From IMG/VR virus record IMGVR_UViG_2778261069_000006: DNA of 4,219 bases. One strand, written 5' to 3'. The stretch is from a virus (taxonomy: Duplodnaviria > Heunggongvirae > Uroviricota > Caudoviricetes). The number at the start of each line of letters is the position of its first letter. Position 1 is the stretch's first letter. The notes under the pieces were generated by a model that was not told where the DNA came from, searched no databases, and worked only from the letters and a program-made list of their open reading frames with translations. Both the position numbers and the translations under genes were made by a program. Below are positions 1 to 4,219 of the stretch, in pieces.

Positions 1-2
1 CG

Positions 3-1382
3 GTATCGTTCAGGATTGCCGCACCGGCAGCGCCGTCTCGGATTGAGCTGACGCCGGGCTATTTTCAGATAACCGCCACGCCGCATCTTGCGGTTTATGA
101 CCCGACGGTACAGTTTGAGTTCTGGTTCTCGGAAAAACGGATTGCGGATATCAGGCAGGTTGAAACCAGCGCGCGTTATCTTGGTACGGCACTGTACTGG
201 ATAGCCGCCAGTATCAATATCAAACCGGGCCATGATTATTATTTTTACGTTCGCAGTGTGAACACCGTTGGCAAATCGGCATTCGTGGAGGCTGTCGGTC
301 AGCCGAGTGATGATGCATCAGGCTATCTGGATTTTTTCAAAGGCGAGATAGGGAAAACCCATCTGGCTCAGGAGCTGTGGACGCAGATTGATAACGGTCA
401 GCTTGCGCCTGACCTGACTGAAATCAGGACGTCCATAACGGATGTCAGCAATGAAATAACACAGACCGTCAATAAGAAACTGGAAGACCAGAGTGCAGCG
501 ATCCAGCAGATACAGAAGGTTCAGGTTGATACAAATAATAACCTGAACAGCATGTGGGCAGTGAAGCTGCAGCAGATGCAGGACGGACGCCTTTATATTG
601 CGGGTATCGGTGCCGGTATTGAGAACACCCCTGACGGCATGCAGAGTCAGGTGCTGCTGGCAGCAGACAGGATTGCGATGATTAATCCTGCGAATGGCAA
701 CACAAAGCCGATGTTTGTTGGTCAGGGCGATCAGATATTCATGAATGAAGTGTTCCTGAAACGCCTGACGGCCCCCACCATTACCAGCGGCGGTAATCCT
801 CCGGCATTTTCCCTGACATCAGACGGGAGACTGACGGCGAAAAATGCGGATATCAGTGGCAGTGTGAATGCGAACTCAGGAACGCTCAACAATGTCACGA
901 TTAACCAGAACTGTACGATTAAGGGCATGCTGGAGGCGACCCAGGTCAGAGGAGATTTCGTTAAAGCTGTATCAAAAGCCTTCCCGAAAAAAGTCGGTAC
1001 GTGGGGTAACACGGAAACACCAAACGGTACGGTTACAGTCACCATCAGCGATGATCATAACTTTGACCGCCAGATTATTATTCCGCCCATTATTTTTAAC
1101 GGTATAGCGTATGACGATCCGGGGAGCGGAAATAACCCAGGAGGCACGCGATACACGGGTTATGGTTTTGAAGTTCGCAAAAACGGCGTATTAATCGCAT
1201 CCAGAGAAACTAAAGGGGCCATTCCCGGTAGTTACAGTGCAGTTATTGATATGCCGAGTGGCAGGGGAAGCGTCACTCTGGAGTTTAAGATTTTCCAGAA
1301 AGGCAATCAGGGGGCAGGCAATATCACCGACTGTACGGTGATTGTGACCAAAAAAGCCGCTTCCGGCATCAGTATTCGTTGA
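3..1382 (+). CDS. J: Host specificity protein J (central tail fibre / tail tip), C-terminal part; 5'-truncated by the window edge
   Basis: The frame is open from position 3 (checked codon by codon, no stops) to TGA at 1380-1382. The track ORF 258..1382 is only the part after an internal GTG. The translation (…[42 protein letters not shown]…[27 protein letters not shown]…[27 protein letters not shown]…[17 protein letters not shown]…) matches my recollection of the lambda gpJ C-terminal region. The gene order J-lom-stf supports the call. Confidence 0.9.
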
Positions 1383-1404
1383 AATATTTATAACCCCAAT
1401 AAAG

Positions 1405-1431
1405 GGCGTCAGGAATGACGCCTTTTTTATT
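1405..1431 (+). terminator. Rho-independent terminator between J and lom
   Basis: Perfect 7-bp stem GGCGTCA (1405-1411) / TGACGCC (1416-1422) with a GGAA loop, followed by TTTTTTATT (1423-1431), 23 bp after the J stop. Confidence 0.7.
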
Positions 1432-1441
1432 GCAGAAAAGC

Positions 1442-1447
1442 GAGAGG
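1442..1447 (+). promoter_or_regulatory. Shine-Dalgarno sequence for lom
   Basis: GAGAGG lies 5 nt upstream of the ATG at 1453. Confidence 0.6.
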
Positions 1448-1452
1448 TAATT

Positions 1453-2052
1453 ATGCGTAAAGTTTGTGCAGCAATTTTGTCCGCAGCCATTTGTCTGGCC
1501 GTATCCGGTGCGCCTGCATGGGCGTCTGAACATCAGTCCACGCTGAGCGCGGGGTATCTTCATGCCTCGACGAACGTCCCCGGCAGTGATGATCTGAACG
1601 GGATTAACGTGAAATACCGTTATGAGTTTACGGACACACTGGGGCTGGTGACGTCATTCAGCTATGCAGGAGACAAGAATCGCCAGCTGACCCGTTACAG
1701 CGATACCCGCTGGCATGAAGATTCCGTTCGTAACCGCTGGTTCAGCGTAATGGCGGGGCCGTCTGTGCGCGTGAATGAATGGTTCAGCGCGTATGCGATG
1801 GCGGGTGTGGCTTACAGCCGTGTGTCGACTTTCTCCGGGGATTATCTCCGCGTAACTGACAACAAGGGGAAAAAGCACGATGTGCTGACCGGAAGTGATG
1901 ACGGTCGCCACAGCAACACGTCTCTGGCGTGGGGGGCTGGCGTGCAGTTTAACCCGACCGAATCCGTGGACATTGATATTGCTTATGAAGGCTCCGGCAG
2001 TGGTGACTGGCGCACTGACGGTTTCATCGTGGGTGTCGGTTATAAATTCTGA
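1453..2052 (+). CDS. lom: Lom outer-membrane protein (Ail/Lom/PagC/Rck family 8-stranded beta-barrel), 199 aa
   Basis: ATG at 1453 with a good SD, TGA at 2050-2052. N-terminal signal peptide MRKVCAAILSAAICLAVSGAPAWA with an AxA-type cleavage site. C-terminus …SGSGDWRTDGFIVGVGYKF ends in the terminal aromatic residue typical of beta-barrel OMPs and matches my recollection of lambda Lom. The position between J and stf is as in lambda. Confidence 0.92.
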   Translation: MRKVCAAILSAAICLAVSGAPAWASEHQSTLSAGYLHASTNVPGSDDLNGINVKYRYEFTDTLGLVTSFSYAGDKNRQLTRYSDTRWHEDSVRNRWFSVMAGPSVRVNEWFSAYAMAGVAYSRVSTFSGDYLRVTDNKGKKHDVLTGSDDGRHSNTSLAWGAGVQFNPTESVDIDIAYEGSGSGDWRTDGFIVGVGYKF

Positions 2053-2078
2053 TTAGCCAGGTAACACAGTGTTATGAC

Positions 2079-2108
2079 AGCCCGCCGGTTCAGGCGGGCT
2101 TTTTTGTG
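2079..2108 (+). terminator. Rho-independent terminator between lom and stf
   Basis: Perfect 8-bp stem AGCCCGCC (2079-2086) / GGCGGGCT (2093-2100) with a 6-nt loop, followed by TTTTTTGT (2101-2108), 27 bp after the lom stop. Confidence 0.75.
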
Positions 2109-2116
2109 GGGTGAAT

Positions 2117-4213
2117 ATGGCAGTAAAGATTTCAGGTGTACTGAAAGACGGCACAGGAAAACCGGTACAGAACTGCACAATCCAGCTGAAAGCAAAACGT
2201 AACAGCACCACGGTGGTGGTGAACACGCTGGCCTCAGAAAATCCGGATGAAGCCGGGCGTTACAGCATGGACGTTGAGTACGGGCAGTACAGCGTTATTC
2301 TGTTGGTGGAGGGATTCCCGCCGTCACATGCCGGGACCATCACCGTGTATGAAGATTCCCGACCCGGTACGCTGAATGATTTTCTCGGTGCCATGACGGA
2401 GGATGATGCCCGTCCTGAGGCACTGCGCCGTTTTGAACTGATGGTGGAAGAGGTGGCGCGTAACGCGTCAGCGGTGGCACAGAACACGGCAGCCGCGAAG
2501 AAGTCAGCCAGCGATGCCAGCACATCAGCCCGTGAGGCGGCAACCCATGCGACTGATGCTGCAGGCTCAGCACGCGCAGCCAGCACGTCAGCCGGACAGG
2601 CCGCGTCGTCGGCTCAGTCAGCATCTTCCAGCGCAGGAACGGCATCAACAAAGGCCAGTGAAGCAGCAAAAAGTGCTGCTGCTGCAGAGTCCTCAAAAAG
2701 CGCGGCAGCTACCAGTGCCGCTGCGGCGAAAACGTCAGAAACGAATGCGGCAGCGTCACAACAATCAGCAGCCACTTCTGCATCCGCCGCGACCACGAAG
2801 GCGTCAGAAGCTGCCACCTCAGCCCGGGATGCGGCGGCCTCAAAAGAGGCAGCGAAATCATCAGAAACGAACGCATCCTCGAGCGCCAGTAGCGCAGCTT
2901 CCTCGGCAACAGCGGCAGGAAATTCCGCGAAGGCGGCAAAAACGTCAGAGACGAACGCCAGGTCTTCTGAAACGGCAGCGGGACAGAGCGCCTCAGCTGC
3001 GGCAGACTCTGAGACAACAGCTGCATCATCGGCCCGTGAGGCGTCCATTAAGGCAGAGGAGGCAGCAGTCAGTGCCACCGCCGCCGGAAAATCGGCAGAA
3101 AGCGCCGCATCATCCGCTTCAACAGCCACAACGAAGGCTGGCGAAGCCACTGAACAGGCCAGCGCAGCAGCGAGGTCTGCTTCCGCAGCGAAGACATCCG
3201 AAACGAACGCGAAAGCGTCGGAAACCAGCGCAGAATCCTCAAAAACGGCTGCCGCATCGTCCGCCAGTTCGGCGGCGTCATCGGCATCATCGGCGTCTGC
3301 TTCAAAAGATGAGGCGACCAGACAGGCGTCAGCAGCGAGGGGCAGCGCCACGACGGCATCCACGAAGGCGACAGAGGCTGCTGGCAGTGCGGCAGCGGCA
3401 GCACAGAGCAAAAGTACGGCAGAATCCGCAGCAACGCGCGCCGAGACAGCAGCAAAACGGGCAGAGGATATTGCATCCGCCGTGGCGCTTGAGGATGCGA
3501 GCACGACGAAAAAGGGGATAGTACAGCTCAGTAGTGCGACTAACAGCACTTCCGAGTCACTGGCGGCAACACCAAAAGCCGTTAAGGCCGCGTATGACCT
3601 GGCTAACGGGAAATACACCGCACAGGATGCAACGACAGCACAGAAAGGGATAATCCAGCTAAGCAGCGCGACCAACAGCACGTCTGAAACGCTTGCCGCG
3701 ACACCAAAGGCAGTAAAAGCAGCCAATGACAATGCTGAGAAACGTCTGCAGAAAGATCAGAACGGTGCGGATATCCCTGGCAAAGATACCTTTACGAAAA
3801 ATATTGGTGCCTGCCGTGCCTTCGGTGGGTCAGTAAGCACAACAACAGGAAACTGGACGACTGCACAGTTTATCGAGTGGCTGGATTCTCAGGGAGCATT
3901 TAACCATCCATACTGGATGTGCAAGGGTTCCTGGTCTTATGGCAATAATAAAATCATTACTGATACTGACTGCGGTAATATTCATCTCGCCGGAGCTGTC
4001 ATTGAAGTAATGGGGATAAAGTCAGCGATGACGATCCGCATTACCACACCGACCACCTCCACTGGTGGTGGAACAACTAACGCCCAGTTTACTGCAAAAT
4101 GGCATCTGAATCGATCGCAGTTTGGCATTCGAATCGATCATGATTTGGCATTCATCTCCGATCACAGTTTGGCATCACAATCGATCACGATTTGGCATGC
4201 TTCCGATCATTGA
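2117..4213 (+). CDS. stf: Side tail fibre protein Stf: conserved N-terminal domain, Ala/Ser/Thr-rich shaft, duplicated tail-fibre motif, divergent distal tip
   Basis: ATG at 2117 is preceded by the SD-like GGGGTGA (2108-2114). The track begins at the in-frame GTG 2111, but MAVKISGVLKDGTGKPVQNCTIQLKAKRNSTTVVVNT… from the ATG matches the lambda Stf N-terminus as I recall it. The frame is open to TGA at 4211-4213. The 3' end is uncertain because the last ~115 bp lie inside a 23-bp tandem DNA repeat, so the true C-terminus may differ. Confidence 0.85.
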   Translation: MAVKISGVLKDGTGKPVQNCTIQLKAKRNSTTVVVNTLASENPDEAGRYSMDVEYGQYSVILLVEGFPPSHAGTITVYEDSRPGTLNDFLGAMTEDDARPEALRRFELMVEEVARNASAVAQNTAAAKKSASDASTSAREAATHATDAAGSARAASTSAGQAASSAQSASSSAGTASTKASEAAKSAAAAESSKSAAATSAAAAKTSETNAAASQQSAATSASAATTKASEAATSARDAAASKEAAKSSETNASSSASSAASSATAAGNSAKAAKTSETNARSSETAAGQSASAAADSETTAASSAREASIKAEEAAVSATAAGKSAESAASSASTATTKAGEATEQASAAARSASAAKTSETNAKASETSAESSKTAAASSASSAASSASSASASKDEATRQASAARGSATTASTKATEAAGSAAAAAQSKSTAESAATRAETAAKRAEDIASAVALEDASTTKKGIVQLSSATNSTSESLAATPKAVKAAYDLANGKYTAQDATTAQKGIIQLSSATNSTSETLAATPKAVKAANDNAEKRLQKDQNGADIPGKDTFTKNIGACRAFGGSVSTTTGNWTTAQFIEWLDSQGAFNHPYWMCKGSWSYGNNKIITDTDCGNIHLAGAVIEVMGIKSAMTIRITTPTTSTGGGTTNAQFTAKWHLNRSQFGIRIDHDLAFISDHSLASQSITIWHASDH
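2462..3508 (+). repeat. Degenerate low-complexity coding repeats (Ala/Ser/Thr-rich shaft of Stf, about aa 116-464)
   Basis: Strong A/S/T/E/K bias in the translation with recurring degenerate motifs: AKTSETNA, AKSSETNA, TKASEAA, TKAGEAT, TKATEAA, SAAASSASSAASSASSASAS. Coding is dominated by GCN, TCN and ACN codons, which leaves the other frames on both strands free of stops. Confidence 0.8.
3509..3598 (+). repeat. Copy 1 of the conserved phage tail-fibre repeat motif (KKGIVQLSSATNSTSESLAATPKAVKAAYD)
   Basis: Direct translation. A motif of the form GIxQLSSATNSTSE…AATPKAVK is, to my knowledge, characteristic of lambdoid/T-even tail-fibre proteins. Confidence 0.8.
3641..3730 (+). repeat. Copy 2 of the conserved phage tail-fibre repeat motif (QKGIIQLSSATNSTSETLAATPKAVKAAND)
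   Basis: Lies 132 bp (44 codons) after copy 1. The protein is nearly identical, but about half the codons differ at synonymous positions. Confidence 0.8.
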
Positions 4214-4219
4214 TTGGCA
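4097..4219. repeat. Tandem array of 23-bp imperfect direct repeats, at least 5.3 units, truncated by the window end
   Basis: GGCAT starts at 4101, 4124, 4147, 4171 and 4194, with GGCA again at 4216 (spacings 23, 23, 24, 23, 22). GATC starts at 4113, 4136, 4160, 4183 and 4205. Units: aaaaTGGCATctgaaTCGATCGcag / TTTGGCATtcgaaTCGATCAtga / TTTGGCATtcatctccGATCAcag / TTTGGCATcacaaTCGATCAcga / TTTGGCATgcttccGATCAttga / TTGGCA…. Confidence 0.85.

Follow-up and report, generated by a model that had tools for sequence, protein, structure and literature searches.

The stretch of DNA analysed here, called the window in its full length of 4,219 nucleotides (virus record IMGVR_UViG_2778261069_000006), is the complete draft contig PTRS01000140.1 of assembly GCA_002965725.1, and it carries the 5' part of a prophage side tail fibre gene, stf. 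With high confidence, we found this gene to be cut inside codon 659 by an insertion sequence (IS) of the IS21 family, in the gene that lies at the end of the draft contig. A sequence-only reading had taken positions 3731-4096 for the distal tip of the fibre and, in consequence, for its likely host-range cassette, and this part of the reading has to be given up, given that the segment only appears terminal because the IS cuts the gene at 4092. What precedes the cut belongs to a known, structurally solved, internal and exchangeable fibre module, the Mu S' (gp52)/P1 Sv'-type domain, as is expected in mosaic enterobacterial fibres, and the intact alleles of the same gene run on for 365 residues to a tip of the lambda/T4 gp37 type. 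The latter is the real tip of this fibre family, and it is absent from the window.

The insertion sequence in the stf gene

In 1134 near-full-length E. coli loci, the homology to the window reaches 4092 and goes no further, and all of the best matches stop there. In the base-by-base alignment of the junction, the IS terminus lies at 4093 and starts with TGCAAAATGGCAT, and the intact allele reads ...CAGTTTAC followed directly by CTATATTAATCAC. This terminus is 5'-TG, with the same first base as in both independent insertions compared with it, and the insertion inside codon 659 turns ACC into ACT, with the threonine kept. The long open reading frame (ORF) of stf, which runs on the + strand from the ATG at 2117 to 4213, thus crosses 39 IS codons (AKWHLNRSQ...ASDH) before it reaches its stop at 4211-4213, and this read-through tail is not tail-fibre sequence. 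The peptide quoted in the sequence-only reading is indeed encoded on the + strand in the frame of stf, with its first codon at 3725 (position 3731 itself starts NAEKRLQ...), but its last three residues, A-K-W (4093-4101), are encoded by the IS.

The DNA from 4093 to the contig end is part of a multicopy element found in 2885 of 5426 complete E. coli genomes, on chromosomes as well as plasmids, and in up to 35 places per genome. Two independent full copies (loci L002 and L003) have istA and istB directly downstream and are annotated as IS21 family or ISSso4-like. The element therefore has the marks of an IS21 member, namely the TG terminus, the internal end repeats, and istA-istB, with the last two genes lying only in the full copies elsewhere. 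Its left end holds four to five direct repeats of about 23 base pairs (consensus AATCGATCACAGTTTGGCAT), each with a GATC (Dam) site, at 4113, 4136, 4160, 4183 and 4205, that is, phased by 22-24 base pairs. Multiple IstA-binding repeats are typical of IS21 ends, and the repeats seen here are presumably of that kind. In sum, the TG start, the several short end repeats, the istA/istB pair of the full copies and the multicopy state liken it to IS21 elements of the ISSso4 type, whereas it differs in that only its first 127 nucleotides lie in the window and in having GATC in each repeat. A contig that ends in this way in a multicopy repeat would be the product of a de Bruijn assembler at a true repeat boundary, with 127 being a common largest k, and the end of this contig exactly 127 nucleotides into the multicopy IS looks like the k-mer overlap of the assembler.

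In another strain, E. coli 6409, this stf allele carries an IS3-family element in its 3' part (NZ_CP010371.1, 1657859-1660711), and therefore IS disruption of this gene has happened more than once.

Architecture of the intact gene and its tip

The intact coding sequence has 3075 nucleotides and 1024 codons (WP_016230955.1), and our reference for it was the prophage of E. coli LC-1302-2020 (locus L001), to which positions 1-4092 of the window are 99.9% identical, with six mismatches only. We suggest that the gene is best read as a six-part mosaic, made up of the PF08400 N-terminal domain, the shaft, two Phage_fiber_2 repeats, the Mu S'-type domain, a second central domain, and the tip. The Mu S'-type domain takes up about residues 539-695 of the intact protein, which leaves 329 residues after residue 695, and the 365 residues beyond the IS cut point hold the remainder of this domain, the second central domain (about residues 696-792, common to P1 Sv' and other fibres) and the tip, with the tfa gene downstream. 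This sixth part would be a Tfa-dependent collar and His-rich needle of the T4 gp37/lambda Stf type. The Collar domain (PF07484) is found at residues 798-845 and is followed by the His-rich needle; residues 794-1024 match the T4 gp37 tip of PDB entry 2XGF (E 2e-84, about 80% identity), and lambda orf-314, the C-terminal part of lambda Stf, shows 70% identity to residues 795-1024. At the other end of the protein, lambda orf-401 matches residues 1-352 with 80% identity. The lambda/gp37-type collar, the needle tip and tfa, all missing from the window where the IS starts at 4093, are present both in L001 and in PhiR42_1, an induced phage from ECOR13 that has an L001-like arrangement with a Stf of 1025 residues followed by Tfa, and whose central module (residues 539-798) is 100% identical to that of the intact allele. 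The sequence-only reading did not recognise its segment as the lambda Stf tip, and rightly so, since 3731-4092 shows no similarity to lambda Stf (best E = 1.2).

Identity and fold of the central domain

Pfam has no family for the central domain and gave only a sub-threshold Gp34_trimer match (E 0.035) across its end. The search of solved structures aligned residues 181-334 of PDB entry 8JU3 with intact residues 542-695 (E 1.4e-68, about 80% identity over 154 residues), and the domain has the same fold as the proximal domain of the variable region of Mu S' and P1 Sv'. The entry 8JU3 is the tail fibre S' of phage Mu (gp52, the G(-) fibre), as given in a passage of PMC11821841 and in the reference to Mori et al. 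2024 (Virology 593:110017) within PMC11915804. The window copy comprises only residues 1-120 of this domain of about 155 residues. The sequence-only reading had proposed to look for a likeness to known fibre tips or to intramolecular chaperones, and what the structure search returned is the internal domain of Mu gp52 and no chaperone. An intramolecular chaperone of the endosialidase or Peptidase_S74 kind was rejected as a candidate, given that there was no C-terminal family match, no Pfam match on the segment at E<=1, and none among the fold matches.

By tblastn, the domain is 82-84% identical to its counterparts in P2-like phages, 73% to P1 Sv' (in which the following domain also matches) and 69% to Mu S', with further matches in P7 and in the S' of D108, and more distant ones in the T4-like distal fibre subunits of Vibrio and Aeromonas phages. 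In the G segment of Mu, the homology starts 4 nucleotides past the 35-base-pair inverted repeat (Gin), which makes the domain the opening module of the invertible Sv' part. A P2-like fibre has it at residues 335-483 of 736, behind four repeats and with about 250 residues after it, and in every matching multi-domain PHROG tail-fibre profile it is likewise internal (at 744-872 of 1190, 436-570 of 974, 808-944 of 1385, 431-574 of 794, and similarly elsewhere). The protein fragments that we recovered join it to several different neighbours, both upstream and downstream. A word-indexed protein search with the 120-residue segment gave 45 short and mostly partial proteins of at most 196 residues, fit for a small alignment only, and the domain architectures were read from annotated loci and not from these proteins.

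An AlphaFold model was made of a protein fragment (P0001, 99% identical to the window and corresponding to intact residues 535-701) with an alignment of 22 sequences. The model has a pLDDT (predicted local distance difference test score) of 66.6, with values of 74-87 in the core, and its confident core spans residues 43-143 (intact residues 577-677). According to this model, the IS cut falls at residue 125, inside the folded core, and one full beta-strand and part of another would be lost.

The recombination joint and the base composition

To locate module borders, positions 3400-4092 were compared by megablast with the complete E. coli genomes, which gave 3691 matching records, 701 of them covering at least 80%, and the end points of the alignments were tallied on an evenly spaced sample of 60 of these 3691 records (Table 1). 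The end just past the second ATPKAVKAA motif, reached in 16 of the 60, bears out the sequence-only reading in that the motif is a module junction, and we regard it as a real and much-used recombination joint. Alleles of O157:H7 and UTI89 have three and four fibre repeats and then read, in translation, ATPKAVKAAN(D/N)NANGRVPSARKVNGK..., the start of another central module right behind the motif, and strain AR89.2B shares ...NAEKRLQKDQNGADIP and then passes into a third module. The segment behind the motif is thus exchangeable, as had been supposed, and the three alleles all end in one and the same tip family. The tip in turn is exchanged as its own unit, independently of the central module: it has a breakpoint at residues 793-802, and in a separate spread sample of 60 records, 18 share only the part from there onward and about 13 more agree in the repeats and the tip and differ in the centre.

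The two Phage_fiber_2 repeats (3509-3739) are 82% identical as protein, with third codon positions only 33% identical and a longest shared run of 8 nucleotides. Because of this low third-position identity, the repeat search of the window detected no DNA direct repeat between the two units, and with so short a run neither unit is a substrate for recombination with the other. Elsewhere, the copy number of these repeats is three or four (O157:H7, UTI89 and a P2-like phage). The motif that precedes the central domain would be, in our proposal, a recombination joint common to lambdoid, P2-like, Mu and P1 fibres, and ATPKAVKAA offers in this sense a measurable joint that links the lambdoid fibre genes with those of the contractile-tailed phages (Mu, P1 and P2-like).

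The sequence-only reading had also seen, by eye, a compositional break after the motif, and this was correct in so far as the total G+C content (GC) declines along the gene, with 0.62 for the shaft (2501-3500), 0.54 for the fibre repeats (3501-3730) and 0.475 for 3731-4092; however, the largest step lies near 3490, at the end of the Ala/Ser-rich shaft, and not at 3731. By codon position, the drop resides at the first and second codon positions (GC1 and GC2), with GC2 going from 0.79 through 0.56 to 0.52 across the same three regions and GC1 falling as well, and against all of the upstream gene the segment 3731-4092 differs at both (GC1 p=0.015; GC2 p=0.002). Third codon positions (GC3) show no significant shift between the upstream part (0.541) and 3731-4092 (0.467; Fisher p=0.16), no codon position differs between 3731-4092 and the adjacent 77 codons of the repeats (p=0.24-0.66; GC3 p=0.24), and the best single GC3 change-point in the gene, at 2522, is not significant (permutation p=0.32). 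Codons for Ala, Ser and Thr carry C at position 2, and the fall at positions 1 and 2 arises because the Ala/Ser/Thr-rich sequence comes to its end. The composition of foreign DNA as the cause of the drop was rejected, given that the GC3 shift is not significant; the GC break is a change in amino-acid composition and not a synonymous-site signature of foreign DNA.

Interpretation and alternative readings

We propose that an IS21-family element inserted within codon 659, inside the Mu S'-type domain, which would let the frame run 39 codons into the IS and stop, and would separate the second central domain, the receptor-binding tip and tfa from the promoter-proximal part of stf. The segment 3731-4092 would then be the first three-quarters of an internal and horizontally shuffled fibre domain. 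The resulting fusion product of 698 residues would form no functional side fibre, because it lacks the C-terminal Tfa-dependent tip and because its last domain stops short of the final beta-strands, and most likely the prophage in this strain has no functional side tail fibres. This does not mean that the prophage must be dead, since laboratory lambda (lambda PaPa) has a frameshift in stf and still plates using J alone, and the present phage, if otherwise intact, would probably adsorb via J alone in the same manner.

Some points weigh against this explanation. The window covers neither the IS right end nor the 3' remainder of stf, so that a target-site duplication and the fate of the tip and tfa in this strain are out of view, and a junction placed where a draft contig ends might be present in a subpopulation only. 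The AlphaFold model is a monomer of moderate confidence, and the role of the domain within the Mu fibre would follow from its position.

Among the other readings, the one that survives best, though we hold it to be unlikely, gives the Mu S'-type domain the role of a secondary lateral binding site, for instance for core sugars of lipopolysaccharide (LPS), so that the swapping of modules would tune the host range alongside the tip. In its favour, the domain is globular and exchanged as a unit at a sharp joint, in Mu and P1 it sits in the invertible and host-range-determining part, and a passage of PMC11821841, citing Mori et al. 2024, reports that the gp51/gp52 fibre of Mu recognises the LPS inner core. 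Somewhat less probable still is a stronger form of it, in which the internal knob would be an auxiliary glycan-binding site and its exchange at the ATPKAVKAA joint would change the host range independently of the gp37-type tip. Below this auxiliary-glycan idea we rank a third one, namely that the IS-truncated product might assemble into a shortened fibre.

We consider it very improbable that the junction is an artefact of assembly, that is, a chimeric contig end with no real IS insertion in the strain. The junction does lie only 127 nucleotides from the end of a short draft contig; none of the 5426 complete E. coli genomes has it, and an exact search of the species-representative genomes gave 0 matches. 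However, a contig end exactly 127 nucleotides into a multicopy repeat would fit a true repeat boundary, the break falls precisely at the TG terminus shared with two independent insertions, and the IS3-family element in the same gene of strain 6409 tells us that IS events in stf do occur. The poorest of all, and hardly credible by now, is the distal receptor-binding tip and host-range cassette of the sequence-only reading, which had in its support that the segment follows a conserved motif where alleles diverge, lacks similarity to lambda Stf and lies near the stop codon of the window ORF, but this stop and the 39 codons before it are IS sequence, the intact alleles go on to the gp37/lambda-type tip, that tip is swapped independently at residues 793-802, and Mu S', P1 Sv', the P2-like fibres and all matching PHROG fibre profiles have the domain at an internal position.

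Returning to the interruption of stf by the IS21-family element, what we describe is already known in kind, being an ordinary mosaic tail-fibre module in an IS-inactivated gene, and its importance is little beyond correct annotation. We suggest keeping in mind that an ORF which stops close to a draft-contig end may turn out to be a gene::IS fusion, so that its seeming C terminus is not to be taken as native, and that the needle of the lambda/T4 gp37 type is the host-range tip throughout this common family of E. coli prophage fibres, with the Mu S'-type domain as a central module.

Gene order and comparison with known systems

The window is very probably part of an E. coli lambdoid prophage, near-identical to the prophages that adjoin ydfK/ydfJ at the Qin site of K-12. 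The order J-lom-stf is that of the lambdoid tail module, with stf in its proper place (Table 1). The partial J gene was called with the Pfam families Ig_J_second, Phage_Tail_Tip and Ig_GpJ_C, and it is annotated as gpJ in L001. The left contig end breaks within J, a gene that is repeated among lambdoid prophages. In L001, where a full-length prophage occupies the Qin site of K-12, the order is J, lom, the 1024-residue 'phage tail protein', tfaQ, pinQ, ydfK and ydfJ.

Table 1. Features of the window and end points of the megablast alignments.
Feature	Position	Strand	Remarks
Host-specificity gene J (tail tip), 3' part	1..1382	+	gene runs off the left contig end
lom (Ail/Lom outer-membrane beta-barrel protein)	1453..2052	+	ORF, L001 annotation, Pfam Ail_Lom
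stf, side tail fibre gene, native part	2117..4092	+	codons 1-658 and two bases of codon 659, of 1024
Prophage tail fibre N-terminal domain (residues 1-134)	2117..2518	+	PF08400, E 7.7e-72, window ORF
Ala/Ser/Thr-rich shaft	2519..3499	+	source of the high GC, GC2 ~0.79
Two Phage_fiber_2 repeats, each ending ATPKAVKAA	3500..3730	+	PF03406, E 1.7e-37, 2 stretches
Mu S' (gp52)/P1 Sv'-type fibre domain, first 120 residues (539-658) of ~155	3731..4092	+	
Recombination joint, conserved repeat motif/exchangeable central module	3730..3736	.	megablast ends and allele switches
Alignment ends, 16/60 (~27%)	3730-3736		just past the second ATPKAVKAA
Alignment ends, 24/60	3575-3598		past the first motif; K-12 StfR included
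Alignment ends, 12/60	through to 4092		whole segment common
Alignment ends, 4/60	3777		after ...QNGADIP
Alignment ends, 4/60	3681-3709		inside the second repeat
IS21-family (ISSso4-like) left end	4093..4219	+	127 nucleotides, starts TGCAAAATGGCAT, reaches the contig end
IS-encoded read-through tail of the ORF	4093..4213	+	AKWHLNRSQFGIRIDHDLAFISDHSLASQSITIWHASDH, then stop; not tail-fibre sequence

Compared with lambda, the prophage shares the order J-lom-stf, the N-terminal 352 residues of the fibre, the C-terminal 230 residues of the intact allele and tfa downstream, and it differs in the central region, which in lambda is P2 gpH-like and here consists of two fibre repeats and two other domains. 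In Mu, the domain of gp52 opens the invertible Sv' right after the Gin site, with a Mu-type tip, served by gp51, beyond it, whereas here it belongs to a lambdoid Stf, has Phage_fiber_2 repeats before it and a gp37-type tip after it, and is cut by the IS in the window.

The intact relatives of the window have tfaQ, pinQ, ydfK and ydfJ downstream, as K-12 Qin does. The Qin remnant of K-12 still holds the last 956 nucleotides of the intact stf (from about residue 707; L001 8236-9191), 99.8% identical and adjoining nohA; it lacks the Mu S'-type domain and keeps the 3' part of stf, while in the window it is the 5' part that is present and the 3' part that is missing. These comparisons show the prophage of the window to be a full-length relative of the cryptic Qin. 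The serine invertase gene pinQ (L001 9864-10454), which is not in the window, directly follows tfaQ in the intact relatives. No plausibly placed gix/pix-like site with the Gin/Cin/Pin crossover core AAACCnnGGTTT was found, at up to two mismatches, in the stf of the window or in stf-tfa of L001, nor was there an alternative tip/tfa set in L001 (6117-9766), and for lack of a crossover site pinQ looks like an orphan invertase in these relatives.

The shaft region (2514-3732) is overlapped by several long ORFs, one of 335 residues in another + frame and five of 372, 135, 118, 108 and 106 residues on the - strand, the products of which are of low complexity and rich in Arg/Pro/Gln or in Ala/Asp/Phe, and these look like by-products of a periodic sequence rich in GCN and TCN codons rather than genes.

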